Source: an uncultured bacterium (GTDB lineage Bacteria > Patescibacteriota > Saccharimonadia > Saccharimonadales > UBA4665). Taken from it: DNA of 64,000 bases. Position numbers and translations under genes: made by a program. The stretch lies in the NCBI GenBank assembly GCA_963805865.1, contig CAWDVI010000003.1:334131-398130 (forward strand), in the 5' to 3' direction. The notes beneath the pieces are model-generated. The model saw only the letters and a list, made by a program, of their open reading frames with translations, did no database searches and was not told the DNA's origin. Shown here piece after piece: positions 24,915-48,550 of this stretch; the stretch's first letter is position 1; every line of letters begins with the position of its first letter.

Positions 24915-24924
24915 TTATCGTACT

Positions 24925-26441: not shown

Positions 26442-29400
26442 ATGCCAGCAAAATCAACCAAAAACACCAAAACCTGCCAGATTTGTAAGACCTCTTTCCA
26501 GGGAAGGAAGGACGCTAAGACCTGTTCGCCGGCTTGCCGCAAACGCTTACAGCGTAACCTGCAGGCTCAGATCGCCTATAAGGCCAAGCGGCTGGAATCG
26601 GTGTTGGGCAAGGAGCTCCACCGGATAGCCGCCGCCTTGCTTGAGAATCATGTCGTCCATGAGCCGCTGGTGCTGGCTGATGAGCGGGGCGCTATAGCGG
26701 TGGCTGAGCCGCCCACCGAAGAGAAGCAGGAGGGCGCGCTGGACGTTGAGCACGAGGAGCCGCCAGCCAGCCAGCCAGTGGCCAGCGAGCCTGCGGCTAA
26801 CGAGCCGGCTACTACCCAGATCCCAGTGGCTGCGCCGCCGAGCGAGCCAACCCCGGTTGAGCCGCAGATCCAGTCGACGGCGCTGCCCAGGGAAGCTGAT
26901 AAGCGCTTCTCGCCGTCGATAGTTACTCCTGAGCCAGTTGCCGAATCTTTGGAGTCCAACCCAGTTGAAGTTACCCCTGAACCTGCGGCTGCGCCGGAGC
27001 CAGCCGCCACCCCGGACATCCAGATCAGCCAGGCCGCGCCGATTGAAGAACAGCCGGTTCCAGAGCCAGCATCCCAGCCGGAACCCCAGGCGTCAACGGC
27101 GGCGCCGTCGGCCATTCATCTGGAAGACATGATGTCGTCGGAGTCGCTGGAGCCCTCGGCCTTCGGTGAAGCGGAATCTATGGAATCAGCCGCTGATGAC
27201 GGGGCTAAAGGTAAGCCGCCAAAGACGTCTGGTTTGGGTGGCAATTTCTCACTATTCCGCTGGAACAAGGTGGCGCTCATGGCCACTGGCCTGTCTCTGC
27301 TGGCTATCGTGGTGGTGTCGGTCGGAGGTTTCTTCCTGTTGTCCAGGCACAATACCCAGCATCTGGCCAGCAAGAACTCGCCGGGCAACTACTCTGTGGG
27401 CGACTTGCCATTGAGTAATGTCCAGGCTAACCCGGCCCTGCAGGTGGGCGAAGCCAATGAGGTGACCATCAACGGCCAGCTGACGGTCAACAAGACCCTG
27501 GTGCTGGCGCCAAGTTCAACGCCGTCGGCACCGGTGACGGGTCAGATTTACTACGACAAGACGGCCAACGCGCCAGCTTATTACAACGGTTCGCAGTTTA
27601 TAAGTTTAGCGCCGCAGCAAGGGGTTACTTCCATAGGCGGCCTGGGCGGTACCGTTGGCCTGGGTAACGGCTTGAGTGCCTCAGGCGATCAGATAGCGGT
27701 ATCCAACTCGCTCATCCAACAGATCAATGACGCCAGCAACCAGACCCGGGTCATCAGCCTCCAGGGCTTGTCTGGCAACCTGGCGCTAAGCGCCGGTCCG
27801 GGCATCAGCATCAACGGTCTTACCATTAGTGCGACTGGGGGTGGCGCAGGGGTTACCAGCTTAACCGGCACAGCAAACCAGGTCAATGTCTCGGCCGCTA
27901 CCGGCAATGTTACCCTGTCATTGCCCCAAAGTATCGCCACGACTTCTACGCCGACCTTTGGCGGATTGACACTAGGCAGTGCCCTGACAGCTGCCAACGG
28001 CGGTACAGGGGCCGCGAGTTTTACTTCCAACGGTATTCTGTACGGCAACGGCGCGGGGGCCATCCAAAGCACGGCGAGTGCCAATAACAGCGTGTTAGTG
28101 ACCAGTGGCGCCGGGGTGCCTAGCCTCAGCCAGACACTTCCGTTACAGGTGCAGAGCAATATTACTCAGACTGGCACCCTGAACGCGGGTGCCATAACCG
28201 CTGGCTTTGGAGCTATCTCAACCGTTAATAATATTACAACGTCAGCACTGATACAGGGTGGTTCCTTGCAGGTTACCGGGGGTAACTTTACTGTTGACGG
28301 TACGGGCAACGTTGTAGCTAATGGAACGGTTAACATAGAAGGGTCAGGCGGCATCACCATAGGTGTTGCAGGAACTACAGCAGGCAGTATAGTCATCGCC
28401 AATGCTTCAAACCTGCATACAACAACACTTCAAGCCCTGGCTTCCGCCACCCAGGATCAAACGATCACTATTCCCGTATCCAGTGCGACTACCGACCAGA
28501 TCTGTCTGTTAACGCTGGGTAACTGTTTCGGTTCAGGCAGTAGTGTTACGTCCATAGGCACACAGAACTACATCTCAAAATTCACGAACGCGGCGGCTAA
28601 CGAGATAGGCAACTCCCTGCTCTATGACAACGGTACCAGTGTTGGCGTGGGCACTATTACGCCCGGCGCCAGTTATTTGCTTGATGTGAACGGCAGTCTG
28701 AATGCCGCTGGTAGCGCGACTATCGGAACCGGCCTTACGGTCACGACCGGCGGGGCAACTATTACCGGTGATATCTTGCAAACCGGTACGGGAGCGTTCA
28801 CGACCGGCTCAGGCGCCGTTACATTGAACGGCAACACCAGCATAACCGGTTCTAAGACCCTGACCGTTGGCACCGGCGCGACGACACTGGGCGGCACGCT
28901 GGATGTAACCGGCCTGTCTACGCTCACTGGCGGGGCTACCATCTTGGCGCCCGCGACCATTACTGGCACGGCCAACATTAACACCACTGGTACGGCCAGC
29001 ACTTCCATAGGTAATGCTACCGGTAACTTCAGCTTGACCTCGCCTGGGCTGAATGTCAGCACCGCCGGGGCGCTCAGCGGTGTAACCGGTTATACCCAGA
29101 CTAGCGGCAACTTCAGTCAGAGCGGTACGGGCACCTTCGGTACGGGTACGGGAACGGTCAGCCTGAATGGCGCCACGTCTGTTACTAACGGGGACTTCAC
29201 CATAGGCGTAGCAGGCTCCACCGTTGGTAACCTCAATCTGGCTAATGCTACCTCTACCAGATTGGTTATTCTCCAAGGCCTGAATCCTTCCGGTGCCGGG
29301 GATGCCACTATACAGATTCCGACCATAGCCGGCGGCACTACGGATACGGTGTGTCTGCTGGCCCTGGCCAACTGTAGCGCTAGCGGCGCCGCTGGCGGCG

Positions 29401-32400
29401 ACCTGACGGGCAGCTACCCCAACCCGACCATCGCCAAACTGCAGGGCACCACTCTGACCCTGTCCTCCCTAGCTAGTGGCGATGTCCTGCAATACAACGG
29501 CTCCGCCATAGTGAACGGACATATAACTAACTCCAACCTGACTGCCGGTACCTTCTCCGCCATAACCGGCACTGGGGCACTAACAGCTGGTTCCATCGCC
29601 TCCGGCTTCGGAACTATCTCAACAGCCAATACCATCACCGGCACTACATTGAACGGTACCACCGGCATCAATACCGGAGCCGGTGCCGGCACCCAACGCA
29701 TAGACGCTAGCGGCAACCTGGTCAACATAGGTACCATTACCAGCGGGCTGATCAACGGCCAGACTATCTCCAGTAGTGCTAACTTTACGGGCAGCCTAAC
29801 AGTCCAAGGCGCTGGCGGTATAACGGCCGGCGTAGCCGGCGCCACAGCCGGCAGCCTGACCCTGGCCAATGGTAGCAATAGCCAGCTCAGCCTGCTACAG
29901 GCCAGCGCCCCCACCGGTGCCGGCAACGCCACCTTCCTGTTACCAGGCCTAGCCGGCGGTAGCAGCTACACCCTTTGTACCACCACCACCTGTGCCGCTA
30001 GCGGCAGCGGCGTAACTTCCTTGGACAGCCTGACCGGTGCCCTAACCATCAATAACAGTAGCGGCTCCGGCTCAGCCATCACCATAGATAATGCTGCCGC
30101 TGACGGTACCACTAAAGGTATAGCTACCTTCAACGCTACCAACTTTACGGCCAGCAGTGGAGTCATCAATACCATCCAGAACATAGCTACCACCTCCAGC
30201 CCGGTCTTCGTTTCACCGAACGGTACCACCGGCATCAATACCGGAGCAGGCGCCGGCACCCAACGCATAGACGCTAGCGGCAACCTGGTCAACATAGGTA
30301 CCATTACTACCTCCGGTGCTATCAATACCGCTACCATAAGTGGCGGTACACTCTCCGGCGGTAACGTCTCCGGCGGCACCCTGACAGCTACGGCTGTCAA
30401 CGGCCTGAATGTCTCCAGCACAGCCATAGCCGTCCAGGCAGCCGCCACCGGCCTGACCATAGACGCCGGTACATCCGGCACTGTCTCCATAGGCGCTACT
30501 TCTACAGGAGATATACTGCTAGGCGGCGGCTCCGGCTCTACCGGCTGTACGGTAACTAACTCCAATGGCAACCTGGCTTGTAGCGGTACCATCACCGGCA
30601 CTACCTTGAACGGCACCACCGGCATCAATACCGGAGCCGGCGCCGGCACCAACCGCATAGATTCCTCAGGCAACCTGGTCAACATAGGTACCATCACCAG
30701 TGGCCTGATCAACGGCCAGACTATCTCCAGTAGTGCTAACTTTACGGGGACGCTGGGTGTAGCCACCTCCGTCACCACGCCTCTAGTCAACCTGACCGTA
30801 GGCGCTAACACGGTCAGCATCAGCTCTGCCGCCCAGGCTAATGACGTAGCCCTATCCATACCAGCCGACACTAATACCACCGACACCCTATGTCTCCTAA
30901 CCTTAGGCAACTGCTCAGCCTCCGGCTCCGCCGGCGGCGACCTGACGGGCAGCTACCCCAACCCGACCATCGCCAAACTGCAGGGCACCACTCTGACCCT
31001 GTCCTCCCTAGCTAGTGGCGATGTCCTGCAATACAACGGCTCCGCCATAGTGAACGGACATATAACTAACTCCAACCTGACTGCCGGTACCTTCTCCGCC
31101 ATAACCGGCACTGGGGCACTAACAGCCGGCTCCATAGCCTCCGGCTTTGGCACTATAGCTACTGCTAACACCATCACTGGCACTACCATCAACGGCACCA
31201 CCGGCATCAATACCGGAGCCGGTGCCGGCACCCAGCGCATAGACGCTAGCGGCAACCTGGTCAACATAGGTACCATCACCAGTGGGCTGATCAACGGCCA
31301 GACTATCTCCAGTAGTGCTAACTTTACCGGGACGCTGACCGTCCAAGGCAGTAGCCTGACTGTCGGTACGCCGGGAACCACCATTGGCTCAATCAACCTA
31401 TCTACTAGTGCCAGCAACAGCAGGGAAGTCATTCTCCAAGGTCTTAATCCGTCTGGCACGGGCAATGCCACTATACAGATCCCAACCATCGCGGGCGGCA
31501 CGACTGACGCGGTCTGTTTGGTAGCGCTTGGCAATTGTGCCGGTAGCGGGGGCGGTATTACTGGTAGCGGTACATCAGGCACGCTAGCTGTCTTTACCGG
31601 TACGGGCAGTATTGGCAACTCAGTTATCACGGAATCCGGCAGCGCAGTTAGCGTAGCCGGTACCCTGGCTGTTACCGGTGCCAGCAGCCTAACGCTGGGC
31701 ACGGCAGGACCGGCTGGGAATACAGGCGCCATAGTCTTCAATAACTCTGCTAACGCCAACACCCTGACCCTGCAGTCTGGGGCGACTGGCAGCAACCTGA
31801 CCTTTACTTTGCCAACAGCTGACGGTGCTAATGGCGACTGTTTGATGACTAACAGCAGCGGTGTCTTAAGTTTCCAAGCTTGTACCGGCGGCGCTGGTGG
31901 CGGTGTCACCAGTCTTGATGGTCTTACAGGTATACTGACCATCAATAACAGTAGCGGCTCCGGCTCAGCCATCACCATAGATAATGCCGCCGCTGACGGT
32001 ACCACTAAAGGTATAGCTACCTTCAACGCTACCAACTTTACGGCCAGCAGTGGAGTCATCAATACCATCCAGAACATAGCTACCACCTCCAGCCCGGTCT
32101 TCGTTTCACCGAACGGTACCACCGGCATCAATACCGGAGCAGGCGCCGGCACCCAACGCATAGACGCTAGCGGCAACCTGGTCAACATAGGTACCATTAC
32201 TACCTCCGGTGCTATCAATACCGCTACCATAAGTGGCGGTACACTCTCCGGCGGTAACGTCTCCGGCGGCACCCTGACAGCTACGGCTGTCAACGGCCTG
32301 AATGTCTCCAGCACAGCCATAGCCGTCCAGGCAGCCGCCACCGGCCTGACCATAGACGCCGGTACATCCGGCACTGTCTCCATAGGCGCTACTTCTACAG

Positions 32401-35400
32401 GAGATATACTGCTAGGCGGCGGCTCCGGCTCTACCGGCTGTACGGTAACTAACTCCAATGGCAACCTGGCTTGTAGCGGTACCATCACCGGCACTACCTT
32501 GAACGGCACCACCGGCATCAATACCGGAGCCGGCGCCGGCACCAACCGCATAGATTCCTCAGGCAACCTGGTCAACATAGGTACCATCACCAGTGGCCTG
32601 ATCAACGGCCAGACTATCTCCAGTAGTGCTAACTTTACGGGGACGCTGGGTGTAGCCACCTCCGTCACCACGCCTCTAGTCAACCTGACCGTAGGCGCTA
32701 ACACGGTCAGCATCAGCTCTGCCGCCCAGGCTAATGACGTAGCCCTATCCATACCAGCCGACACTAATACCACCGACACCCTATGTCTCCTAACCTTAGG
32801 CAACTGCTCAGCCTCCGGCTCCGCCGGCGGCGACCTGACGGGCAGCTACCCCAACCCGACCATCGCCAAACTGCAGGGCACCACTCTGACCCTGTCCTCC
32901 CTAGCTAGTGGCGATGTCCTGCAATACAACGGCTCCGCCATAGTGAACGGACATATAACTAACTCCAACCTGACTGCCGGTACCTTCTCCGCCATAACCG
33001 GCACTGGGGCACTAACAGCCGGCTCCATAGCCTCCGGCTTTGGCACTATAGCTACTGCTAACACCATCACTGGCACTACCATCAACGGCACCACCGGCAT
33101 CAATACCGGAGCCGGTGCCGGCACCCAGCGCATAGACGCTAGCGGCAACCTGGTCAACATAGGTACCATTACTACCTCCGGCGCTATCAATACCGCTACC
33201 ATAAGTGGCGGTACACTCTCCGGCGGTAACGTCTCCGGCGGCACCCTGAGCGCCACGGCCGTCAACGGCCTGAATGTCTCCAGCACAGCCATAGCCGTCC
33301 AGGCAGCCGCCACCGGCCTGACCATAGACGCCGGTACATCCGGCACTGTCTCCATAGGCGCTACTTCTACAGGAGATATACTGCTAGGCGGCGGCTCCGG
33401 CTCTACCGGCTGTACGGTAACTAACTCCAATGGCAACCTGGCTTGTAGCGGTACCATCACCGGCACTACCTTGAACGGCACCACCGGCATCAATACCGGA
33501 GCCGGCGCTGGCACCAACCGCATAGATAGCTCAGGCAACCTGGTCAACATAGGTACCATTACTAGTGGCCTGATCAACGGCCAGACTATCTCATCCAGTG
33601 CTAACTTTACGGGGACGGTCGCTATACAAGGCGCTACCGCCCTGACGCTGGGCACAGCAGGACCGGCTGGGAATACAGGCGCCATAGTCTTCCAGAACTC
33701 TGCCGGCACCCACACCGTCACCCTGCAAGGCACGGCCGCCGATACGGCTGCTAATTACACTTTGACGATCCCAACTTTGACAGGGAATGACACGCTCTGC
33801 GTGGCTACCTTGTCCAACTGTACGGCGGCTGGATCGGCAAGTGGGGATCTTACGGGTACGTATCCTGGACCGACCATCGCCAAACTACAGGGCACCACTC
33901 TGACCCTGTCCTCCCTAGCTAGTGGCGACGTCCTGCAATACAACGGCTCAGCCATAGTCAACGGACATATAACTAACTCCAACCTGACTGCCGGTACCTT
34001 CTCCGCCATAACCGGCACTGGGGCACTAACAGCTGGTTCCATCGCCTCCGGCTTCGGTACCATCTCTACCGGCAACAACATAACTACTACCACCACCGTA
34101 CAGGGCGGGGTAGTCAATGCCACCTCCACCCTGGAACTGGGCGGCGCAGACATTAATACGGCCGGCACCCTGAGCAATGTGGCTTACTTGAATGCCACCA
34201 GCAATAACTTCACCAGCACTACTCTCCAGCACAATGGCAATGACATCTGCGACAATTCCAATAACTGTAACTACGCGCCGGCCAGTGGCGGCAACTACCT
34301 GGCCAGGAATGCTGCGGATACCTCATCCGCCGCCGTCACTGCCGCTAACAACCTGTACAGCTTCACCAACTCCAGCTCAGCCACCGCCTCGGGCGTCCTG
34401 AAGCTGGATAACGGCACCAACACCAACTCGGCACTTACAGTAACCGCCAGCGGCAACCCAACCTCCGGCCAGGCGCTGATCTTCGCCAGCAACACCAACG
34501 CCAGCCCCAGCGGCAATCTGATAGACCTGCAATCCGGCTCTAGCCCAACTTCCAAGTTTAGTGTTGATGCCAGCGGCAACCTGACAGCTACCGGCACCAT
34601 CAATGGTGCTACCATCACTTCAACCACCTTCAACACGGCCACCATATCCGGCGGCACCCTCACCGGCGGCAGTCTATCCAGCTCAGCCGTCAACGGTCTA
34701 TCCGTATCCGGCGGCACCATCACTAACCCGACTATTACCGGCACCGTAACCGGCTCCTCTAGTCCTACTATCTCCGGCTTCGGCACCTACAACGGCCAGA
34801 CTATCTCATCCAGCGCTAACTTTACTGGCACATTGGCAGTGCAGGGGGCTAGCACGACGATAGGTACGGCCAGTGGCACTACCGGCACGGTCAAGCTCTA
34901 CAACTCCGGCGGCTCCGGCTCCATCACCCTAACTCCGGCTAATCCAAGCTCTACTGATTACACTCTGACCCTGCCGGCTGAGAATGGCACCATCTGTACT
35001 ACCGGCAGTGTCTGTACTGGTTACGCGCCATCCAGCGGCGGCAACTACATAGCCAAGAACGCCCAAGATACCTCAAGCGCCAGCACCACTGGCAATCTGC
35101 TCGGCTTGACCAACACCAACACCGGCGCGGCCGGCGTTCTGAGCCTGACCAACAGCGGCACCAACTCAGCCCTAAGCATCTTGCAGAGCGGCACCAGTGA
35201 GCCGGGTGCCGGCGAAGCCCTCATAAAGGCCAATAATAATACGACCACGCCAACTGGTAACTTGCTAGACTTGCAGAACAAGGGTACCAGTGAATTCGCC
35301 GTTGACGTCAGCGGCAACAGCACGCAACTTGGCCTGGCGACCACGGTAGGCCTGAACGCCCAGTCCGGCCTGATCCAGGGCACTAACGGCCTGACGGTGA

Positions 35401-38400
35401 GCGGCGCGGCTATCAACCTGAATAACGGTACCATCGCCAGTAATGTCAGCAGCGTAGACCTGCTGAACGCCACTGTTACAACTCTAAACGTCGGCGGGGC
35501 AGTAGGAGCAGGCGGTATCAACCTGGCCGGCGGCTCCAGCTCAACCGGCTGTACCATTGACGGCACTAACGGCAACCTGGTTTGTACCGGCAGTATTACT
35601 AGCGGCGGCGGCTCTGCCGTAGGCTACTGGAGCCGCACCGGCACCACTTTGTCACCGGCTACATCTGGCGACAATGTCACCACCTCTGGCAACATCTCCA
35701 CCAGTGGCTCAGGGACCATTACAAGCGCCTCAACAGTTACCGGTACTACCTTGAACGGTACTACTGGCATCAATACCGGAGCGGGCGCTGGCACCCAGCG
35801 CATAGATAGCAGCGGCAACCTGGTAGCCATAGGTAATATTACCGGCTCCAGTGCTGTAGCTATCGCTGCCGGCAGTACTGCCCAAAACATAACCTTAGAC
35901 GGCTCCACTACCGGCAAGGTACAGATCGGCGCCACCTCCACCGGCGATATTGAACTAGGCGGCGGCTCCGGCTCAACCGGCTGTACGCTCACCAATTCCA
36001 CCGGCGCCTTCGCTTGTACAAGCACCATCAACGGCGCCACCATCTCCGGCGGCACGCTCTCCGGCGGTAACGTATCCGGCGGTACTTTGACAGCAACAGC
36101 AGTCAACAGCCTGAACGTATCTAGTACTGCCATAGCGGTTCAAGCTGCAGCCACGGGCCTGACCATAGATGCCGGCACCAGCGGAACCGTATCAATCGGC
36201 GCCACTTCCACCGGCGACATCCTACTGGGCGGCGGCTCTGGCGCGACTGGTTGTACGGTTGCTAACTCCAGCGGTAATCTAACCTGCACAGGCACCATTA
36301 ACGGCGCCACCCTAAGCGGTGGCACACTGAGCTCAGGCGCCGTGAACTCATTGAATGTATCCGGCACGGCAATCTCCGGCACCGGCGCCCTGACGGTGGA
36401 CGCCAACGGCGCCAACACAGTATCAATAGGCGGTATCTCAACCGGCGATGTCCTACTGGCTGGCGGCTCCGGCGCGAACGGCTGTACAGTAGCCAACTCC
36501 ACAGGCAACCTGACCTGTACCGGCAACATAACTGGAGCCGCTACCGGCACTGTCGGTTACTGGACCCGCTCCGGCACCACACTATCACCAGCCACGGCAG
36601 GCGACGCCATCACCACCACCGGCAACATCTCCACGACTAGCACTGGCACCATCACTTCCGCTGGCCTGCTAACCGGCAGTTTGGGTGCCACCATCTCCGG
36701 CGCGGCCATCAGCCTAAACGCTTCCTCCAACTTCGCCACCAACATTAACACTGGTAGCTCAACCGGCGCGGTCGCCATCGGAAATACAACGGCAGCAGAG
36801 ACAGTTACTATCCAGGGCGGCACCGGTGCTAGCGCCGTAGCTATCTCGACCGGCTCAGCCGGAACCTTGAGCCTTGGTAATGGTGGCGTAGCCGGCACCA
36901 TCCAGATAGGTAATACTTCCGGCGCCGTAGCCCAGACCATAGGAATCGGCAACAACGCCACTGCCAGCTCCACCAGCGCCCTCACCATCGGCAACTTACT
37001 GACTACTTCCACGACCGCCATCCAGGGTGGCACCGGCTCCACAGCCGTAACTATCCAATCCGGTGCCTCCGGCACCATCAGCGTCGGCACTACTTCCCAG
37101 ACTTCCACCCTGAACCTGGGCAACACCAGCGCCTCATCCACCACCCTCATAAACGGTGGCACTGGCGCTAGTGCCATCAGCATCCAAGCCGGCACCTCTG
37201 GCACCATCAGCATCGGCACCACTAACGTCAACACTGTAACGGTTGGCAACACCTCCAACGCCGGCACCCTGACCTTCGGCCGGTCCACCCAGGGTGAGAC
37301 CATCAACATCGGCAATGGTAACGTCGCCTCCGGCAAGACCAACACCATCAACATTGGCGCCACCGCTACGTCCACTGGTAAGGATGTGGTCACTGTAGGC
37401 AGTACTGTGGCCGCCTCCACGCTGACGCTGCAGGGCGGCAACACCTCCTCAGCAGTAAGCATACAGTCCGCGGCCTCCGGCACCATCAGCGTGGGCACCT
37501 CCGGTGTAGCTAACACTGTTCAAATCGGTAACACCAGCGGCGCAGTAGCCCAGACCATCAACATCGGCAACAGCTCCACCGCTAGCTCTACCAACACCGT
37601 AAACATCGGTTCGGCCATAGGCACTAGCCCTATAACTCTGAAGGGTGGCACTAGTGGCATCACTCTCAATCCGGCTGGCGGATCATCGAATAACGGTGTA
37701 TTGGTTAAGCCAACCAGCGACACCACCACCGCCTTCCAGGTGCAGAATGCCAGCGGCACGGCCGCCCTAAATGTAGATACTACCAATATGACTACGACCT
37801 TGCAGGGCGGTGCCGATACGGCCACCATAGGCTCAGAGCTGATAACTACTACGGACTTCACCAATGCAGCCTGGACTAAAACCGGCTGGAGCACCACTAC
37901 GACTACGGCCACACATAACACCGGCAACACCAACCCGCTGTACTCGGCCCAGTTTACGTCCTCTACGACTGCTACATATCAGGTTAAATATACTGTTAGC
38001 GGTAGTCCTGCGCTTGGTTCCACGCTTAGTGTGTTATTCGGGAGTTCCTCTGGAGCGGGTGGATGCACGGTAGCCAGCCATACATTTGAGGGTGCTTCTG
38101 CAAGCAACTTTACCAATACAGTGCTTTTGACATGCAGTTCTTCCACCACAGGTGAAATAAGCTTTGTCCCGTCCAGTGATTTCAATGGAATTATATCGGC
38201 CGTGTCAATTAAAGAAGTAACTTTGAATGCCAGCCCAGCTTTCACAATTAACGACTCTACGGGTGTCGCTTATCTAGAAGTCAGGACTGCCACCGGTAGC
38301 AGTGGCGGTAACCTCTTTATCGGCAATAATTCTGGCCAGTCCGATACCAATGGCTGGGCTAATACAGCAGTTGGATTACACGCACTACAAGATAATACAA

Positions 38401-40304
38401 CAGGCATAGCCAACACGGCGTTTGGCAACGGAGCTTTGCAACACACCACTACCTCCTTGTTTAACACCGCCGTAGGCGCGGTTGCTTTGCAGAGCAATAC
38501 TACAGGAGGATCTAATGTAGCATTAGGCTATAATTCTCTTCATGATAACCTTACAGGTAGCAACAACGCTGGTATAGGTACAAGCGCTTTGCAGCACAAC
38601 ACCACAGGAAGCTACAACACTGCGCTCGGTATTGCTTCCTTGCAGAATAGCACTATAGGGAAACAGAACACGGCCGTAGGCTATAGTTCTTTAAATGGCA
38701 ACACCACAGGAAGCTACAACACTGCGCTTGGCATAAATGCACTATTAACGAATACCACTGGAGCACATAACACAGCTGTCGGCGAGGGGGCTGACGTAGG
38801 CTCTGCCGGTCTATCTAACGCCACTGCCATCGGCACTCACTCTCTGGTGAGCCAAAGCGACAGCCTGGTTTTGGGTTGTGTCAGTGGCACGAATAGCTGT
38901 ACCGCCAACACTAAAGTTGGCATCGACAACGCCGCGCCGGCCCATACCCTGGACGTTGCTGGCGACGGCCTGTTCAAGACCGATTCCACCGCCGCCTTCC
39001 AGATTCAGGATGCTTCTGGCAATACCCATTTCTCGGTCGATACCTCAGGTTCTACATACACTGCGGTCAACGTGGGCGGTTCTGGCACTTCATATGGCGA
39101 GATCAACCTCTTACAAGGCAGCAGTAAGATATGGGGTCTGGCTACTGATGACGGTGGCCCTGGTGGATCCAACGGCCTTAACTTCTATAACTATGGCGCA
39201 GGCACCGTCAACTTCGCGTTGTCAGCCGATGGCGAAGCGTACTTTACCACCGACGATGGTAGCAGCAACGACTCCTATACTGCCCTACAGGTGCGGAATC
39301 ACAGCGATACATCATCCTTCATAGTCAGTACCAAAAACGTGTCTACCGGCTACAATTCGGCCAATGCCATCTTGAAAGTCGCCAAGGATTCCGGCACGAA
39401 CCGCTCAATCAACGCCGCCGGTTCTATCAATGCCTCCGGAGCTGACTACGCGGAGTATATATCTTGGAGTGGCGCCGTGCCTGACCCGGGTTCGGTAGTG
39501 ACCTACAACGGTAGCGCATACGTGGTGTCTTCCCAAGACACCGCCGCGTTCGTCGGTAATGATAACTTTAGCGGCGGCAGTGTGCTGGTAACCTTCGCCG
39601 GCCAGGTGCCCGTTAAGGTAACCGGCACGGTTAACGCCGGCGACCTGTTGGTAGATAACGGCGATGGCACGGCCAAGGCGGTGGATCCGGCCAGCGCCTC
39701 CATAATGCAGTACGTCGGCAAGCTGGGCATCGCCCAGGAGGCTAGCTCGGATAGCGGCGTCAAGCTGGTCAAAGCGGCCATCGGTACCACCAGCTCTAAT
39801 GTAAATTCTGCTCTGGGTCAAACATCAAGTGGCAGTTTCTCGGATATCAACGTCAGCGGCACGGCCACGATTAATAACCTGACGGTTACCGGTTCGGCCA
39901 ATATTGCTGACTTGACGGCTGGCAGCCTACACGTTACTTCCAGCGCGGTCTTTGCCGGTGATATCACCGTGGGCGGGCATATCATCACCTCTGGTGGACA
40001 GCCGACGGCTACGGCCCAGGCTTCGGCGGGCGGCTCGGCTACAGTGGCGGTGGATGGCACGGACACCACCGGTACGATTACGATAACTACCGGTAGCGCG
40101 CCTTCGGCTGGCGACCTGGCCAAGATCCTGTTCTCGCGGACCTACGGTGCCGCGCCGCACATCGTCTTGAGTCCGTCCAATGACAAGGCCGCGGGCTTGC
40201 ACTTCTACAAGGGGTCGACGAGCGCCACGGACTTCATGTTCGACGCCCAGGACGCCCCGGCGGCCAACACCACGTACACCTTTGACTACTTCATCGCGCA
40301 GTAA
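26442..40304 (+). CDS. giant (4,620 aa) N-terminally membrane-anchored, repeat-rich cell-surface fibre/adhesin-like protein with tail-fibre-like C-terminal region
   Basis: Single uninterrupted 13.9-kb ORF. CxxC..CxxC N-terminus, acidic Pro-rich linker, one TM helix (about 27267..27341), then about 4,300 aa of G/T/S/N/A-rich repeats. NTAxG repeats at about 38340..38830 and a GADYAEY motif at about 39430. Confidence 0.9.
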   Translation: MPAKSTKNTKTCQICKTSFQGRKDAKTCSPACRKRLQRNLQAQIAYKAKRLESVLGKELHRIAAALLENHVVHEPLVLADERGAIAVAEPPTEEKQEGALDVEHEEPPASQPVASEPAANEPATTQIPVAAPPSEPTPVEPQIQSTALPREADKRFSPSIVTPEPVAESLESNPVEVTPEPAAAPEPAATPDIQISQAAPIEEQPVPEPASQPEPQASTAAPSAIHLEDMMSSESLEPSAFGEAESMESAADDGAKGKPPKTSGLGGNFSLFRWNKVALMATGLSLLAIVVVSVGGFFLLSRHNTQHLASKNSPGNYSVGDLPLSNVQANPALQVGEANEVTINGQLTVNKTLVLAPSSTPSAPVTGQIYYDKTANAPAYYNGSQFISLAPQQGVTSIGGLGGTVGLGNGLSASGDQIAVSNSLIQQINDASNQTRVISLQGLSGNLALSAGPGISINGLTISATGGGAGVTSLTGTANQVNVSAATGNVTLSLPQSIATTSTPTFGGLTLGSALTAANGGTGAASFTSNGILYGNGAGAIQSTASANNSVLVTSGAGVPSLSQTLPLQVQSNITQTGTLNAGAITAGFGAISTVNNITTSALIQGGSLQVTGGNFTVDGTGNVVANGTVNIEGSGGITIGVAGTTAGSIVIANASNLHTTTLQALASATQDQTITIPVSSATTDQICLLTLGNCFGSGSSVTSIGTQNYISKFTNAAANEIGNSLLYDNGTSVGVGTITPGASYLLDVNGSLNAAGSATIGTGLTVTTGGATITGDILQTGTGAFTTGSGAVTLNGNTSITGSKTLTVGTGATTLGGTLDVTGLSTLTGGATILAPATITGTANINTTGTASTSIGNATGNFSLTSPGLNVSTAGALSGVTGYTQTSGNFSQSGTGTFGTGTGTVSLNGATSVTNGDFTIGVAGSTVGNLNLANATSTRLVILQGLNPSGAGDATIQIPTIAGGTTDTVCLLALANCSASGAAGGDLTGSYPNPTIAKLQGTTLTLSSLASGDVLQYNGSAIVNGHITNSNLTAGTFSAITGTGALTAGSIASGFGTISTANTITGTTLNGTTGINTGAGAGTQRIDASGNLVNIGTITSGLINGQTISSSANFTGSLTVQGAGGITAGVAGATAGSLTLANGSNSQLSLLQASAPTGAGNATFLLPGLAGGSSYTLCTTTTCAASGSGVTSLDSLTGALTINNSSGSGSAITIDNAAADGTTKGIATFNATNFTASSGVINTIQNIATTSSPVFVSPNGTTGINTGAGAGTQRIDASGNLVNIGTITTSGAINTATISGGTLSGGNVSGGTLTATAVNGLNVSSTAIAVQAAATGLTIDAGTSGTVSIGATSTGDILLGGGSGSTGCTVTNSNGNLACSGTITGTTLNGTTGINTGAGAGTNRIDSSGNLVNIGTITSGLINGQTISSSANFTGTLGVATSVTTPLVNLTVGANTVSISSAAQANDVALSIPADTNTTDTLCLLTLGNCSASGSAGGDLTGSYPNPTIAKLQGTTLTLSSLASGDVLQYNGSAIVNGHITNSNLTAGTFSAITGTGALTAGSIASGFGTIATANTITGTTINGTTGINTGAGAGTQRIDASGNLVNIGTITSGLINGQTISSSANFTGTLTVQGSSLTVGTPGTTIGSINLSTSASNSREVILQGLNPSGTGNATIQIPTIAGGTTDAVCLVALGNCAGSGGGITGSGTSGTLAVFTGTGSIGNSVITESGSAVSVAGTLAVTGASSLTLGTAGPAGNTGAIVFNNSANANTLTLQSGATGSNLTFTLPTADGANGDCLMTNSSGVLSFQACTGGAGGGVTSLDGLTGILTINNSSGSGSAITIDNAAADGTTKGIATFNATNFTASSGVINTIQNIATTSSPVFVSPNGTTGINTGAGAGTQRIDASGNLVNIGTITTSGAINTATISGGTLSGGNVSGGTLTATAVNGLNVSSTAIAVQAAATGLTIDAGTSGTVSIGATSTGDILLGGGSGSTGCTVTNSNGNLACSGTITGTTLNGTTGINTGAGAGTNRIDSSGNLVNIGTITSGLINGQTISSSANFTGTLGVATSVTTPLVNLTVGANTVSISSAAQANDVALSIPADTNTTDTLCLLTLGNCSASGSAGGDLTGSYPNPTIAKLQGTTLTLSSLASGDVLQYNGSAIVNGHITNSNLTAGTFSAITGTGALTAGSIASGFGTIATANTITGTTINGTTGINTGAGAGTQRIDASGNLVNIGTITTSGAINTATISGGTLSGGNVSGGTLSATAVNGLNVSSTAIAVQAAATGLTIDAGTSGTVSIGATSTGDILLGGGSGSTGCTVTNSNGNLACSGTITGTTLNGTTGINTGAGAGTNRIDSSGNLVNIGTITSGLINGQTISSSANFTGTVAIQGATALTLGTAGPAGNTGAIVFQNSAGTHTVTLQGTAADTAANYTLTIPTLTGNDTLCVATLSNCTAAGSASGDLTGTYPGPTIAKLQGTTLTLSSLASGDVLQYNGSAIVNGHITNSNLTAGTFSAITGTGALTAGSIASGFGTISTGNNITTTTTVQGGVVNATSTLELGGADINTAGTLSNVAYLNATSNNFTSTTLQHNGNDICDNSNNCNYAPASGGNYLARNAADTSSAAVTAANNLYSFTNSSSATASGVLKLDNGTNTNSALTVTASGNPTSGQALIFASNTNASPSGNLIDLQSGSSPTSKFSVDASGNLTATGTINGATITSTTFNTATISGGTLTGGSLSSSAVNGLSVSGGTITNPTITGTVTGSSSPTISGFGTYNGQTISSSANFTGTLAVQGASTTIGTASGTTGTVKLYNSGGSGSITLTPANPSSTDYTLTLPAENGTICTTGSVCTGYAPSSGGNYIAKNAQDTSSASTTGNLLGLTNTNTGAAGVLSLTNSGTNSALSILQSGTSEPGAGEALIKANNNTTTPTGNLLDLQNKGTSEFAVDVSGNSTQLGLATTVGLNAQSGLIQGTNGLTVSGAAINLNNGTIASNVSSVDLLNATVTTLNVGGAVGAGGINLAGGSSSTGCTIDGTNGNLVCTGSITSGGGSAVGYWSRTGTTLSPATSGDNVTTSGNISTSGSGTITSASTVTGTTLNGTTGINTGAGAGTQRIDSSGNLVAIGNITGSSAVAIAAGSTAQNITLDGSTTGKVQIGATSTGDIELGGGSGSTGCTLTNSTGAFACTSTINGATISGGTLSGGNVSGGTLTATAVNSLNVSSTAIAVQAAATGLTIDAGTSGTVSIGATSTGDILLGGGSGATGCTVANSSGNLTCTGTINGATLSGGTLSSGAVNSLNVSGTAISGTGALTVDANGANTVSIGGISTGDVLLAGGSGANGCTVANSTGNLTCTGNITGAATGTVGYWTRSGTTLSPATAGDAITTTGNISTTSTGTITSAGLLTGSLGATISGAAISLNASSNFATNINTGSSTGAVAIGNTTAAETVTIQGGTGASAVAISTGSAGTLSLGNGGVAGTIQIGNTSGAVAQTIGIGNNATASSTSALTIGNLLTTSTTAIQGGTGSTAVTIQSGASGTISVGTTSQTSTLNLGNTSASSTTLINGGTGASAISIQAGTSGTISIGTTNVNTVTVGNTSNAGTLTFGRSTQGETINIGNGNVASGKTNTINIGATATSTGKDVVTVGSTVAASTLTLQGGNTSSAVSIQSAASGTISVGTSGVANTVQIGNTSGAVAQTINIGNSSTASSTNTVNIGSAIGTSPITLKGGTSGITLNPAGGSSNNGVLVKPTSDTTTAFQVQNASGTAALNVDTTNMTTTLQGGADTATIGSELITTTDFTNAAWTKTGWSTTTTTATHNTGNTNPLYSAQFTSSTTATYQVKYTVSGSPALGSTLSVLFGSSSGAGGCTVASHTFEGASASNFTNTVLLTCSSSTTGEISFVPSSDFNGIISAVSIKEVTLNASPAFTINDSTGVAYLEVRTATGSSGGNLFIGNNSGQSDTNGWANTAVGLHALQDNTTGIANTAFGNGALQHTTTSLFNTAVGAVALQSNTTGGSNVALGYNSLHDNLTGSNNAGIGTSALQHNTTGSYNTALGIASLQNSTIGKQNTAVGYSSLNGNTTGSYNTALGINALLTNTTGAHNTAVGEGADVGSAGLSNATAIGTHSLVSQSDSLVLGCVSGTNSCTANTKVGIDNAAPAHTLDVAGDGLFKTDSTAAFQIQDASGNTHFSVDTSGSTYTAVNVGGSGTSYGEINLLQGSSKIWGLATDDGGPGGSNGLNFYNYGAGTVNFALSADGEAYFTTDDGSSNDSYTALQVRNHSDTSSFIVSTKNVSTGYNSANAILKVAKDSGTNRSINAAGSINASGADYAEYISWSGAVPDPGSVVTYNGSAYVVSSQDTAAFVGNDNFSGGSVLVTFAGQVPVKVTGTVNAGDLLVDNGDGTAKAVDPASASIMQYVGKLGIAQEASSDSGVKLVKAAIGTTSSNVNSALGQTSSGSFSDINVSGTATINNLTVTGSANIADLTAGSLHVTSSAVFAGDITVGGHIITSGGQPTATAQASAGGSATVAVDGTDTTGTITITTGSAPSAGDLAKILFSRTYGAAPHIVLSPSNDKAAGLHFYKGSTSATDFMFDAQDAPAANTTYTFDYFIAQ
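30045..31276 (+). repeat. 1.23-kb intragenic direct repeat, copy A
   Basis: Line-by-line comparison with 31938..33169 (offset exactly 1893 nt, in frame) found one mismatch (30093 t vs 31986 c). Confidence 0.9.
31938..33169 (+). repeat. 1.23-kb intragenic direct repeat, copy B
   Basis: See copy A. The antisense ORFs 29966..30910 and 30953..32803 share an identical ~290-aa N-terminus for the same reason. Confidence 0.9.
40053..40304 (+). repeat. terminal 252-nt segment of the giant gene (R0), founder of the downstream 3'-end cassette family
   Basis: Encodes DGTDTTGTITITTGSAPSAGDLAKILFSRTYGAAPHIVLSPSNDKAAGLHFYKGSTSATDFMFDAQDAPAANTTYTFDYFIAQ*. Confidence 0.9.
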
Positions 40305-40411: not shown

Positions 40412-40636
40412 ATGTTCATGAGCAAACAACTGAGGTATGATGTCGTGCTTGAGCCCCAGCCGAGCGGCGGTTATACCGTGTACGTGCCCGATTTACCAGG
40501 TTGCGTCAGCGAAGGCCGCACCAAAAGCGAAGCCCTAGCCATGATCCGCGACGCTATCACCGGCTATTTGGCAGTTCGCGCCAAGAAGGGCTGGCGCTTG
40601 CCCAAGGTGGAGCATCAGCAGGTTACTGTAACGTGA
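40412..40636 (+). CDS. hicB: HicB-family antitoxin (UPF0150-type)
   Basis: AAGGAGG RBS; YDVVLEPQPSGGYTVYVPDLPGCVSEGRTKSEALAMIRDAI; stop overlaps the hicA GTG start (GTGA). Confidence 0.8.
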   Translation: MFMSKQLRYDVVLEPQPSGGYTVYVPDLPGCVSEGRTKSEALAMIRDAITGYLAVRAKKGWRLPKVEHQQVTVT

Positions 40637-40851
40637 GTCCGCGCTTACCGCGGCTTACCAGCAAACAATTTATTAAAATCCTCAGAGCTCACGGCTGGGA
40701 AGTAGCCCGCGTCACTGGCAGTCATCACATTATGGCCCACCCCAGAACGAAAGGGATTATCTCCGTTCCACAACACAACCGGACAATGAGTATCGGCACG
40801 CTCAGCCGTTTGGTAAAAGACGCCGGCCTGACGGCCGATGACTTGCACTAG
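40633..40851 (+). CDS. hicA: HicA-family mRNA interferase toxin
   Basis: LTSKQFIKILRAHGWEVARVTGSHHIMAHPRTKGIISVPQHNRTMSIGTLSRLVKDAGL. Confidence 0.8.
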   Translation: MSPRLPRLTSKQFIKILRAHGWEVARVTGSHHIMAHPRTKGIISVPQHNRTMSIGTLSRLVKDAGLTADDLH

Positions 40852-41010
40852 ACCGCCGGCGACCTGGCCAAGATATTGTTCTCTAAGACCTACGACGCGG
40901 TGCCGCACATCGTCTTGAGTCCGTCCAATGGGGCGGCCAGCGGCCTGCACTTCTACAAGGGCAGTACCAGCGCCACGGACTTCATGTTTGACTACTTCAT
41001 CACGCAGTAG
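40852..41010 (+). repeat. 3'-end cassette C1 (5'-truncated, with a 42-nt in-frame internal deletion)
   Basis: Reads (T)AGDLAKILFSKTYDAVPHIVLSPSNGAASGLHFYKGSTSATDFMFDYFITQ*. Begins directly after, and in frame with, the hicA TAG. Confidence 0.9.
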
Positions 41011-41016
41011 CGCATA

Positions 41017-41045
41017 TTGACAGCACCCCTGTCATGGTGTATATT
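41017..41045 (+). promoter_or_regulatory. candidate promoter upstream of NYN gene 1
   Basis: TTGACA, 17 nt, TATATT immediately after cassette C1. Confidence 0.5.
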
Positions 41046-41061
41046 AAAAAGTGCTAAAACC

Positions 41062-41096
41062 TCCCACAGGACCGCAAGGTGTCTGTGGGATTTTTT
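41062..41096 (+). terminator. terminator-like hairpin plus T6 in the leader of NYN gene 1
   Basis: TCCCACAG-13 nt-CTGTGGGA followed by TTTTTT, 16 nt before ATG 41112. Confidence 0.5.
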
Positions 41097-41111
41097 GATA
41101 TACTGTGTGGC

Positions 41112-41684
41112 ATGCCAAAAACCAAAGAACGCTGTGTCATCCTGATTGATGGCAGTAATTTCTTCTTTAAGCTGAAAGATTTACGGCTTCATAATCTGCT
41201 GTCGTTTGACTTCACGGCTTTCAATGGCTACCTGAGCCGCGGCGCCTCTGTTAATGGTGCCACCTATTTTGTCGGCAAGGTGAGGACTGACGGCACCAAA
41301 AAATCCAAACGAATGCAGGCTGATCAGCAGCGGTTGTTCAAACATCTTGCTATGCATGGTTACCGTTACTCGCTCGGTTATTTATTAAAAAATGATGGAG
41401 TTTTTCATGAAAAAGGCGTTGATGTTGAGATAGCCGTGGCTATTTTGGTGACCGCGTACGAAAATTTGGCGGACCGGATCATTCTGGTGTCGTCTGATAC
41501 GGATTTATTGCCAGCCATCAAAAAAGCTCAGCAAAAGGGCAAAACGGTGGAGTACGTCGGCTTCTCGCACAAGCCAAGTTTGGCGCTGGTTGCTCGCTGT
41601 GCCAAAAGCCGCCTGCTTGACCGTGCGGACTTGGAAGGCTTCATCTCAACCCGCAGGCGTAAACCGCCAGCCAGATCACACTAG
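41112..41684 (+). CDS. NYN/LabA-like (PIN-type nuclease) domain protein 1
   Basis: CVILIDGSNFFFKL..HEKGVDVEIAVAIL..DRIILVSSDTDLLPAIKKAQQKGKTVEYVGF. TAG stop abuts cassette C2 in frame. Confidence 0.8.
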   Translation: MPKTKERCVILIDGSNFFFKLKDLRLHNLLSFDFTAFNGYLSRGASVNGATYFVGKVRTDGTKKSKRMQADQQRLFKHLAMHGYRYSLGYLLKNDGVFHEKGVDVEIAVAILVTAYENLADRIILVSSDTDLLPAIKKAQQKGKTVEYVGFSHKPSLALVARCAKSRLLDRADLEGFISTRRRKPPARSH

Positions 41685-41936
41685 GACGGCACGGACACCA
41701 CCGGCACGATTACGATTACCACCGGTAGCGCGCCTACGGCGGGCGATCTGGCCAAGATCCTGTTCTCTAAGACCTACGGCGCGGCGCCGCACGTGGTCTT
41801 GAGTCCGTCTAATGGGGCGGCTTCGGGTCTGCATTTCTACAAGGGGTCGACGAGCGCCACCGACTTCATGTTCGACGCTCAGGATGCGCCTTCGGCCAAT
41901 ACCACGTACACCTTCGATTACTTCATCGCGCAGTAG
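41685..41936 (+). repeat. 3'-end cassette C2 (full length, 252 nt, stop retained)
   Basis: Codon-for-codon alignable with 40053..40304. My hand alignment of 83 codons gives about 22 synonymous-only codon differences and 7 amino-acid changes. Confidence 0.9.
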
Positions 41937-41997
41937 CTTCTTAAACAATTCTTAATCTTGCTTATAATCCCTGTGGTATGACGCTATAATATAGAGT

Positions 41998-42590
41998 ATG
42001 ACTAAAGGTATTTTTGTGTACATTGATTGTGCAAATTTGGACGGCTCGCTTGATAAGCTGGGCTACAAGGGAATTGACTATCCCAGGCTACTTAATTGGC
42101 TCAAAACGAGACGGAAGGCCAGAGAGTTTACTTGTACGCCGGGTACAGCGACGCGCCCCAGAAGGCAAAGTTCAAAAAATTAGAGAAACTGGGCTACATA
42201 GCGAACCTTAAAAAGGTAAAACAATATCCCCCGGAATACAGGACACATAAGTTAAAATGTCCTGGTTGTTCAGCAACAAATAAACACACGGTAAAACGTA
42301 TCGGCAGACGGAAGGCCAATTGTGACTCCGAGCTGACGCTAGACGTCATCAATGACGGCGTACGCAAGAAATATGCCGGCATAATCGTATTCTCTGGCGA
42401 TGGGGATTTCTCGCGTATGTACGAATACGTGGCCGAAGAGCTGGTGAAACCGGTAGTCGTTTTTTCTCCCATGGGTTCAGTTGCAGGCAGCAGAACATCA
42501 ACCAGAGTGAAAGATCTCCATAAAAAAGGAATTATAAGAATAGACGCGCTGGAAGGAATACTCGGTTACAAAGGATACGGCATCAAATGA
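41998..42590 (+). CDS. NYN/LabA-like domain protein 2 (frame switch in an A-run near 42100-42110)
   Basis: ORF 41998..42183 (IFVYIDCANLDG..LLNWLK) continues in ORF 42096..42590 (RVYLYAGY..RKANCDSELTLDVI..IIVFSGDGDF). TATAAT at 41983. Confidence 0.7.
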
Positions 42591-42687
42591 AAAAAGCCTC
42601 CCGGAGGTGGCTTAATTCGAATGCTAAAGCATCATAACATGTAAGAGAGTCTCTTATCAAGTGAGGTTAACCGAAATTTAACAACTC

Positions 42688-42936
42688 GGCACCGACACCA
42701 CCGGTACGATTACGATTACCACCGGTAGCGCGCCTTCGGCGGGTGATTTGGCCAAGATCCTGTTCTCTAAGACCTATGGCGCGGCGCCGCACATCGTGCT
42801 GAGCCCGTCTAATGGGCCGGCTTCTGGCCTGCACTTCTATAAGGGGTCGACTTCGGCCGCCGACTTCATGTTCAACGCCGCTGACGCGCCGGCCGCCAAC
42901 ACGACCTACACCTTCGACTACTTCATCGCCCAGTAG
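42688..42936 (+). repeat. 3'-end cassette C3 (249 nt, stop retained)
   Basis: GTDTTGTITITTGSAPSAGDLAKILFSKTYGAAPHIVLSPSNGPASGLHFYKGSTSAADFMFNAADAPAANTTYTFDYFIAQ*. Confidence 0.9.
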
Positions 42937-42941
42937 CACCA

Positions 42942-42990
42942 GGGGCGCCTGGCGGCGCCCCACAGCGGGCTGGCGCCCGCCGTTATTTAT
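42942..42990 (+). terminator. two tandem GC hairpins with T-rich tail after cassette C3
   Basis: GGGGCGCC-tggc-GGCGCCCC and GCGGGC-tggc-GCCCGC, followed by cgTTATTTATT. Confidence 0.55.
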
Positions 42991-43053
42991 TGAAGTATTA
43001 AACAATCATTAACTTTGCTTACCATCGGTGCGGGCTAATGTTATAGTTGCCGC

Positions 43054-43719
43054 ATGAACACGGCAAAAACACCTATAACTTACGCGTTTATCGACGCCGC
43101 CAACCTGTTTTATGGTTTTGAAAAGCAATACGGCTGGAGCATAGACTATCGCAAACTCCTAGCCTATCTGCGGACAAATTATGGCGTGGCGGAGACTTTT
43201 TATTTTGGCGGTGTCGAAACGCACGGCTATCGGCATGACTATATCCTGGAAGATACCGTAAACCTAGCGGCTCTGGGCAGATATTTAGAGCACCCGCCCA
43301 AAGCCCAAGCCCATGGCGCGACTCTAAACGCGGCAGATTTCGCCCTGCTGTCACGACATATTAAACAGGTAAAGTTTTATCAAAAACTCCAGAATTTTGG
43401 CTATAAACTGGTTTTAAAACCCGTTAAATCATACTTTAGTTCGGGGCGCGGCCGGCACGAGCGTAAGAAAGCTAATTGCGACGTTGACCTGACGCTAGCG
43501 GTATTACGAGAGCAAACGGCTTACCAGCGGGTCTTAATTATATCCGGCGACGGTGATTTTTTGCCGGTTTTAAAGCATGTCAAACGGCAGGGTAAAGACT
43601 TGATCGTTATGTCGCGGGCTTCCCGAACAGCCCGTGAAATCAAGCGCTATGCCGGCCCGGGCCTGCGCGACATAAGCCAGTTGCGTACAAAAATCCAACT
43701 CTCCCAGCTCTCAAAGTAA
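43054..43719 (+). CDS. NYN/LabA-like domain protein 3
   Basis: YAFIDAANLFYG..KKANCDVDLTLAVL..RVLIISGDGDFLPVLKHVKRQGKDLIVMS. Confidence 0.8.
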   Translation: MNTAKTPITYAFIDAANLFYGFEKQYGWSIDYRKLLAYLRTNYGVAETFYFGGVETHGYRHDYILEDTVNLAALGRYLEHPPKAQAHGATLNAADFALLSRHIKQVKFYQKLQNFGYKLVLKPVKSYFSSGRGRHERKKANCDVDLTLAVLREQTAYQRVLIISGDGDFLPVLKHVKRQGKDLIVMSRASRTAREIKRYAGPGLRDISQLRTKIQLSQLSK

Positions 43720-43811
43720 AAAAAATGGGGAGAACCCGTATAGGATGCATCCCCAGTGTAGTGAGTCCATGGTAGCAAATCCTGGTTCGCTGTCAAGAGA
43801 AATTATTCCTT

Positions 43812-44063
43812 GACGGCACGGATACGACCGGTACGATTACGATTACCACCGGGTCTGCGCCTTCGGCGGGTGATCTGGCCAAGATCCTGTTCTCTAAGAC
43901 CTACGGCGCGGCGCCGCACGTCGTGTTGAGCCCGTCTAATGGGGCGGCCAGCGGCTTGCACTTCTACAAGGGGTCGACGAGTGCCACGGACTTCATGTTC
44001 AACGCCCAGGACGCGCCGGCCGCGAACACGACGTACACCTTCGACTACTTCATCGCGCAGTAG
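43812..44063 (+). repeat. 3'-end cassette C4 (full length, 252 nt, stop retained)
   Basis: DGTDTTGTITITTGSAPSAGDLAKILFSKTYGAAPHVVLSPSNGAASGLHFYKGSTSATDFMFNAQDAPAANTTYTFDYFIAQ*. Confidence 0.9.
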
Positions 44064-44212: not shown

Positions 44213-44302
44213 TGGCGGTGGGGACGAGATTCGAACTCGCGGGACACAACAATGCCCACCACTCCCTGAAAGTGGCACCATAAACCACTCGGTCACCCCA
44301 CC
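44213..44302 (-). tRNA. type II tRNA, read as tRNA-Leu (anticodon CAG)
   Basis: Reverse complement reads GGTGGGGTGACCGAGTGGTTTATGGTGCCACTTTCAGGGAGTGG, then a long variable arm, GAGTTCGAATCTC and CCCCACCGCCA. Confidence 0.75.
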
Positions 44303-45073: not shown

Positions 45074-48303
<3,230 letters not shown>

Positions 48304-48541: not shown

Positions 48542-48550
48542 ATTTTGATC

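Follow-up and report, generated by a model that had tools for sequence, protein, structure and literature searches.

The 64-kb window analysed here, a stretch of 64,000 nucleotides on contig CAWDVI010000003.1 from an uncultured member of the Saccharimonadales, one of the Candidate Phyla Radiation (CPR) bacteria, carries a giant surface-protein gene that is followed by an unusual array. Copies of the last 252 nucleotides of the giant gene alternate in this array with a hicBA toxin-antitoxin pair and with genes for NYN-domain nucleases. The copy that terminates the giant gene is termed R0 and the orphan copies behind it C1 to C4. We consider that the orphans probably served the giant gene as its working 3' end until recently and were then displaced by serially inserted cassettes of 0.8-1.1 kb. 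This reading draws on what was observed directly, namely the architecture of the array, the signature of selection in the copies, the recurrence of the layout in two other genomes, the position of an orphan beside a native downstream gene and the absence of an integrase. From these we infer that the unit of transfer was a new end together with its cargo, and that the array was built up in four separate insertions.

The repeated gene ends

The array is ordered R0-hicB-hicA-C1-NYN1-C2-NYN2-C3-NYN3-C4, with one NYN-domain gene in each of the intervals C1-C2, C2-C3 and C3-C4. R0, the current working 3' end, occupies 40053..40304 on the plus strand and comprises 252 nt, that is, 83 codons and a TAA stop. 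Three of the orphans, on the same strand, are intact at 252 nt and end in TAG: C2 (41685..41936), C3 (42685..42936), which starts with the codon CTC and not GAC, and C4 (43812..44063), the most distal copy, which is probably in the ancestral position. The truncated orphan C1 (40852..41010, plus strand) begins at codon 18, without the first 51 nt, and has an internal in-frame deletion of 42 nt; its stop codon is kept.

R0, C2, C3 and C4 are collinear, with no insertions or deletions and with their stop codons in register, and the start points of C2, C3 and C4 lie within 3 nt of each other. Alignment confirmed in this respect the original prediction, made from the letters of the sequence, which had given the coordinates of R0 and C2, the common position of the stop codon and the like behaviour of C3 and C4. 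R0 and C2 differ at 33 of 249 nt, with 7, 3 and 23 of the differences at codon positions 1, 2 and 3, respectively, and the seven amino-acid changes between them (S18T, R29K, I37V, D44G, K45A, A47S and A70S) are exactly those that had been listed by hand.

The repeat copies are 82-88% identical in nucleotide sequence and are arranged as direct repeats. At the protein level the orphans share 90-93% identity with the working end, with differences at 6-8 of 83 residues, mostly conservative. R0 has an NDKAAG variant that is common to two related loci, L001 and L013, and the orphans have NGAASG-type variants. At codons 15, 47, 55 and 57 serine codons switch between AGY and TCN, the residue still being serine. 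The silent differences are evenly distributed over the 252 nt and are not clustered at the junction with the gene body. The uninvaded junction sequence is GCGGTG followed directly by GAYGGCACGGACACC, the latter part also given as GAYGGCACGGA.

The repeat folds no better than shuffled sequence (z of +1.05 and +0.05) and has no excess of structure, on which ground an attC-like or other structured recombination site within it was rejected. The spacing of the units is regular, at 1000 and 1127 nt, and short promoter-like motifs (TAAACAAT ... TTGCT) are common to the stretches after R0, C2 and C3. A comparison of the spacers for common boundary motifs gave merely short AT-rich matches.

Selection on the repeated ends

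The ratio of nonsynonymous to synonymous substitution rates (dN/dS) was calculated by the Nei-Gojobori method for the six pairs of full copies (R0, C2, C3 and C4). These pairs gave dS values of 0.36-0.77, dN values of 0.04-0.085 and dN/dS values of 0.08-0.22, with an excess of synonymous changes over the neutral expectation at binomial p values between 1e-9 and 2e-4. The silent-site pattern is real and far beyond chance; the ratio is not near 1, and the claim that the copies differ mostly at synonymous positions is upheld.

Pairs of working ends, taken from eight genes of other genomes, served as the reference. Such pairs from different genomes have dN/dS values of 0.05-0.32, from which the orphan pairs are indistinguishable, and the dS values of R0 against L001 and L002 (0.68-0.74) represent ordinary between-species divergence. 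For a copy that had been non-coding since its duplication, compared with a working copy, dN/dS would be expected to be near 0.5; the observed value is about 0.1. Since the dN/dS of the orphans is that of working ends, the orphans have been without selection for at most about a tenth of the divergence time. Copies that were under purifying selection as real ends nearly throughout will differ in any pairing mainly at silent sites.

This has a bearing on how the array was first interpreted. The original prediction held that untranslated relics should not keep their frame and amino-acid sequence at such nucleotide divergence. The history of the copies before displacement fully explains the low dN/dS. 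A low ratio between repeated gene fragments is no proof that the fragments are in use, which is sobering for the question that was originally asked. Of the three explanations that had been put forward, the evidence supports the one by which the copies arose as functioning gene ends, in other lineages, and were displaced later. The dN/dS values equal those of working-end pairs, the cargo genes are only 25-35% identical in protein, the orphans of L001 and of a further locus, L021, abut the native downstream gene, and both C1 and the L001 orphan are visibly decaying.

Cargo of the cassettes

The first cassette carries hicB (40412..40636, plus strand), which matches the Pfam family HicB_lk_antitox with an E value of 9e-11 (42.4 bits), and hicA (40633..40851, plus strand), which matches HicA_toxin with an E value of 7e-19 (68.1 bits) and has a GTG start and a TAG stop. 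The GTG of hicA overlaps the stop codon of hicB (GTGA) and both matches exceed the Pfam gathering score, which identifies the pair as a HicAB type II toxin-antitoxin system.

Each of the other three cassettes carries a gene whose product exceeds the gathering cut-off of 24.2 bits for Pfam NYN (PF01936). NYN1 (41079..41684, plus strand; E value 2.5e-17, 64.2 bits) likely starts at the ATG at 41115 and ends in TAG, and its acidic motifs IDGSN, GVDVE and SSDTD are intact. NYN2 (41998..42590, plus strand) matches in its downstream frame (E value 8.5e-9, 36.5 bits). Three-frame translation places a frameshift near 42110-42130, within the stretch 42100-42135, and one such shift is required for a full-length NYN protein; NYN2 is therefore either a pseudogene or affected by an indel error in a long-read assembly. 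NYN3 (43054..43719, plus strand; E value 3e-17, 63.8 bits) belongs to a large CPR family of at least 2837 proteins with about 50% identity, across which D14, D143, D166 and D168 are invariant. The AlphaFold model of NYN3 has a predicted local distance difference test (pLDDT) score of 84, and its best Foldseek matches are the LabA-like protein 2qip, the T5 D15 flap endonuclease and the NYN domain of MARF1.

NYN1, NYN2, NYN3 and a fourth NYN protein at L001 share only 25-35% identity with one another. All three of the NYN genes found in the window lie within the array. Each is served by a separate promoter near its ATG and adjoins a predicted tiny RNA unit. A scan against NCBIfam yielded nothing specific for the NYN proteins. 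Homologues of NYN3 were not found in phage records, and plasmid records gave only distant ones (27%), on Sinorhizobium plasmids. No integrase, transposase, recombinase or reverse transcriptase was present among the 28 open reading frames (ORFs) of the window that were scanned, all of the cassette ORFs included.

The TAG stop codons of hicA and NYN1 abut the first base of C1 and C2, respectively, directly (40849-40854 and 41682-41687). Both genes share their frame with the adjoining orphan, so that read-through would fuse cargo and orphan.

Predicted small RNA units beside the nuclease genes

The unit beside NYN3 (43720..43796, minus strand) is convergent with the gene and lies behind it. It has a -35 element TTGACA and a -10 element TACCAT, followed by ACUACACU, a hairpin and a U-run. 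The promoter, the 5' motif (ACUAAAC(G)UG in the RNA) and the hairpin are conserved in eight loci from different CPR lineages (the window, L018, L021, L024, L027, L028, L038 and L039), always just 3' of the NYN gene. The hairpin loop is conserved, compensatory changes are found in 8 of the 11 stem pairs, and 95.5% of cells are paired. An invariant U-G pair favours the minus strand, opposite to the gene. The unit has no Rfam match. The RNA might act together with the nuclease as its antisense or antitoxin-like counterpart. The hairpin was rejected as a specific marker of NYN genes, since L043 also has it, as a simple terminator with no NYN gene beside it.

Comparable units beside NYN1 and NYN2 are each predicted from a single sequence. 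That of NYN1 (41017..41096, plus strand) lies upstream of and in tandem with the gene and consists of a TTGACA-17-TATATT promoter, about 45 nt, and a hairpin with a T-run. It scores 11 of 12 in the promoter scan, is positive in the terminator scan and folds at -19 kcal/mol (z of -3.75). The unit behind NYN2 (42590..42660, minus strand) is convergent, with a TTGATA-18-TATGAT promoter, a hairpin and a U-run. The NYN1 and NYN2 units are about 40-45 nt long; these two genes belong to other NYN subfamilies.

The same layout in other genomes

Two other genomes show the arrangement. At L001, in another Saccharibacteria metagenome-assembled genome (MAG), the order is the gene end, an NYN gene on the opposite strand, a degraded orphan and a gene for a Zn-ribbon protein; the Zn-ribbon gene also follows the array in the window. 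Of the ten genome or metagenome loci and five further contigs examined for orphans behind homologous gene ends, L001 alone has one. L021 is a CPR contig with no relation to these genomes, and in its type I restriction operon a NYN3 homologue (50% identical) separates hsdM from hsdS. Behind this NYN gene the final 160 or so nucleotides of hsdM occur a second time, with 89% identity, a dS of 0.60 and a dN/dS of 0.11. The orphan copy retains the ATGA stop/start overlap with hsdS and is therefore probably the native end. Behind the copy that is joined to hsdM lies what is left of a decayed hsdS start, which presumably travelled with the cassette. Comparison with HsdM relatives did not distinguish the native hsdM end, the two ends differing at too few residues.

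In most relatives that are free of cassettes the gene end lies directly before the 23S promoter region, and the downstream flank of C4 resembles that region. That the new end arrives with the cargo, and not the reverse, rests on L001, L021 and this similarity of flanks. Third-position identities offer a weak hint that R0 may have been imported: over the 61 codons upstream of the junction the identity is 0.61 to L002, the closest locus, versus 0.41 to L001, and R0 itself is at 0.66 to both L001 and L002.

Several side observations were made at these loci. About 110 nt after the NYN stop codon an insertion polymorphism distinguishes L028-L030 from L031, L033 and L037. In some contigs ychF runs on normally after MALGAG; in others this very position is the insertion site of an element with two genes, one HTH_17/MerR-like and one coding for an MPN635_N domain. 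L002 has a GIY-YIG nuclease ORF (6791-7099) inside or beside the 23S rRNA region, and small GIY-YIG genes also lie near the NYN genes of L018 and L024. At L024 a 36-nt direct repeat (89% identity; 3936-3971 and 5676-5709) brackets 1.7 kb with the NYN gene and two small ORFs, and could represent the boundaries of a more extensive mobile element.

A model of serial end replacement

We propose that a cassette would consist of a replacement 3' end (83 codons and a stop), a promoter and a compact selfish module, the last being either an NYN-family nuclease gene with its adjacent tiny RNA gene or a hicBA pair. Integration would fuse the cassette's own end in frame with the gene body 252 nt before the stop codon, leaving the giant gene intact, and the previous working end would be left behind the cargo without a start codon. 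For nearly all of its past each copy would have been a genuine gene end subject to purifying selection, whether in this lineage or in that of a donor, and it would begin to decay on being displaced, as C1 and the L001 orphan appear to have done. Four such insertions would give the present array.

Two routes of insertion can be envisaged. A double-strand break made by the NYN protein might be repaired from an allele bearing the cassette, in the manner of the mobile endonuclease ORFs of fungal mitochondria. Alternatively, diverged incoming DNA might enter by homologous or homology-facilitated recombination. The repeated ends would then act as portable homology arms, and an addictive cargo (HicAB, and possibly the NYN protein with its RNA) would favour retention.

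Some of our observations weigh against this model. We found no close relative without cassettes, and the array itself is known from the assembly of a metagenome-assembled genome. Among the orphans, damage is greatest in C1, which lies nearest to the gene; this misfits a simple order in which the newest is the nearest. A permutation test of the PHI (pairwise homoplasy index) type gave no mosaic signal within the repeat (p of about 0.28), albeit with low power. Three NYN subfamilies occur at one junction and hicBA in the same target gene, with C1 there beginning at codon 18; a common junction and target are awkward for a cargo-encoded sequence-specific nuclease. A flanking duplication was present in only one (L021) of eight additional contexts of NYN3-family genes, so that most members of the family are not visibly in a cassette state.

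Alternative explanations

Homing in the strict sense would have the NYN proteins act as DNA endonucleases that cut the cassette-free junction 252 nt before the stop codon, the repair copying the cassette and the silent recoding blocking renewed cutting. The layout is identical to that of the fungal mitochondrial mobile endonuclease ORFs, in which the endonuclease is reported to drive mobility (PMC3630166). The catalytic acidic residues of the NYN domain are intact in all three genes, five of six cassettes in the three genomes have NYN cargo, three orphans share a sharp 5' boundary, and the NYN3 model resembles a DNA nuclease, the T5 D15 flap endonuclease, besides NYN ribonucleases. Against this, the silent differences are evenly spread and at an ordinary level of divergence, with no clustering at the junction, and invaded and uninvaded junction sequences show no consistent protective change. 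The same target site would be needed for three NYN proteins that are only 25-35% identical, and the hicBA cassette has no DNA nuclease at all. To our knowledge, the NYN domains characterised to date are ribonucleases, and our literature search found no paper that ties NYN domains to homing. We regard strict homing as unlikely. The earlier suggestion that synonymous recoding serves as resistance to a site-specific nuclease is not supported, given that the changes are evenly spread and at the usual level between species; insertion driven by a nuclease is nevertheless possible in view of the predicted nucleases in the cargo and a layout like that of homing-type mobile endonuclease ORFs.

A silent reservoir, in which the orphans are kept by selection as spare parts for varying the C-terminus or for losing cassettes cleanly, was also among the original suggestions and seems to us very improbable. 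C2, C3 and C4 are indeed intact and in register, two allelic variants (NDKAAG and NGAASG) exist across lineages, and recombination between an orphan and R0 would restore an intact gene, as the excision of prophage e14 does for icd/icdC (PMC13626634). The copies nevertheless differ at no more than 6-8 of 83 residues, and with direct repeats exchange amounts to a one-way deletion. Neither an invertase nor a recombinase occurs among the 28 window ORFs, the DNA shows no unusual structure, parts of C1 and of the L001 orphan have been deleted, and the history before displacement fully accounts for the low dN/dS. A tandem duplication of a unit of gene end and NYN gene in this genome, followed by divergence and gene conversion, would explain the regular spacing and the motifs common to the stretches after R0, C2 and C3. 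It would require, however, that NYN proteins of 25-35% identity arose together with untranslated repeats that remain 82-88% identical, and it predicts a dN/dS several-fold above that found. Gene conversion would moreover erase differences and not confine them to silent sites, and one unit has hicBA and no NYN gene. The far greater divergence of the cargo than of the repeats excludes tandem duplication, which we accordingly rejected and to which we assign next to no probability.

Comparison with known systems

The closest known architecture to the serial end replacement proposed here is that of the mobile endonuclease ORFs (mORFs) of fungal mitochondria, which replace the 3' end of atp6, atp9, cox2 or nad3 in Allomyces and Glomus (PMC3630166). 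The two have in common the order of gene core, imported in-frame C-terminal segment, nuclease ORF and native C-terminal remnant. In the window, and also at L001 and L021, the nuclease ORF lies between two copies of a C-terminal segment, the proximal of which continues the reading frame of the gene core. Both systems combine strong nucleotide divergence between the imported and the native end with little difference in protein, and both are interpreted as horizontal transfer. The present array differs in its location on a bacterial (CPR) chromosome, in its cargo of a NYN/PIN-like protein with a small RNA or of hicBA, and in the presence of four successive cassettes in one gene. Neither LAGLIDADG nor GIY-YIG domains were found in the cargo, which matches only Pfam NYN (PF01936) or HicA/HicB.

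Prophage e14 inserts in icd and carries a substitute 3' end, the native end surviving as the icdC pseudogene; the two ends differ mainly by synonymous changes, and excision yields a chimeric but functional gene (PMC13626634). As with e14 and with islands in tRNA genes, a substitute end is present here at one junction and a displaced native end at the other. Unlike e14, which requires an integrase, neither the cassettes nor the ORFs scanned in the 64-kb window encode one. The elements are moreover about 1 kb and not at least 15 kb, and the target varies between relatives (the giant surface gene and hsdM).

The orphan toxin-immunity modules of rhs and cdiA (PMC3482391) likewise consist of 3' fragments that were displaced, in series, from a gene for a very large surface or secreted protein, with a small gene after each fragment, and recombination with incoming DNA is the proposed origin of the array. 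The tips in the present array are, by contrast, conserved (90-93%) and lack a toxin domain, and the intervening NYN and HicAB genes are self-contained and not immunity genes. Integron arrays resemble ours in their tandem single-gene cassettes between a repeated element and in their cargo of toxin-antitoxin type. They differ in that IntI, attI and attC are absent here and the repeat is a coding 3' end without special structure. A diversity-generating retroelement was considered and rejected, there being no reverse transcriptase near the array and the differences lying at third positions and involving all four bases, with no specificity for adenine.

End replacement by a nuclease cassette is already known from fungal mitochondria, and an integrase-dependent form from prophages and tRNA islands. 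What appears to be new here is the stacking of integrase-free, end-replacing cassettes with NYN or HicAB cargo, four in a row, in CPR bacteria; our search of the literature found no description of gene-end replacement that involves NYN-domain genes, nor any from Candidate Phyla Radiation bacteria. We tentatively suggest, while thinking it rather doubtful, that NYN genes with a tiny partner RNA may form an unrecognised class of integrase-free CPR mobile elements. These would be a bacterial counterpart of the mitochondrial mobile endonuclease ORFs, cutting a conserved gene near its 3' end, installing a replacement end and stacking into arrays. If truly mobile, such elements would offer a way for genes to be transferred horizontally and gene ends to be exchanged in tiny genomes with few recognised mobile elements, would suggest what an uncharacterised and very large family of CPR proteins (at least 2837 members) does and would point to a possible module of nuclease and small RNA. 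At a practical level, such arrays break short-read assemblies and yield spurious small ORFs. The system merits a systematic survey.

The target gene and its locus

The target (26442..40304, plus strand) was defined from its ORF and translation and has 4620 codons. Its product combines an N-terminal transmembrane helix with long internal repeats and, at the C-terminus, a conserved module of about 145 amino acids; there is a weak Pfam match to Peptidase_G2 near the C-terminus. Only 14 database proteins contain the C-terminal module, all of them Saccharibacteria-like, and the closest loci are those of two Saccharibacteria MAGs. Relatives carry several genes with the module per genome, with three at L011 and two convergent ones at L041. 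Several of the internal protein repeats, for example the blocks beginning GTTGINTGAGAGTQRIDASGNLVNIGTIT, are nearly identical over hundreds of residues.

The giant gene lies between the 16S and 23S rRNA genes. The rRNA operon is split (21846-23309, 24838-25001 and 45083-48543), with 16S and 23S/5S 22 kb apart on the plus strand and the giant gene and cassette array in between. Genes for tRNA-Ile and tRNA-Ala are on the opposite strand. The 23S match covers 3217 nt against a model of 2925 nt, probably owing to an insertion in the 23S gene.

The right boundary of the array is formed by a tRNA-Leu(CAG) gene (44213..44302, minus strand), identified by ARAGORN and Rfam; an Rfam scan of the array found this tRNA as the sole known RNA family. 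This tRNA gene stands between C4 on one side and the Zn-ribbon gene with the 23S promoter on the other. A second tRNA-Leu(CAG) gene at 60282-60373 (minus strand) is about 80% identical to the first, promoter and terminator flanks included, and two such genes are an unusual redundancy for a reduced genome.

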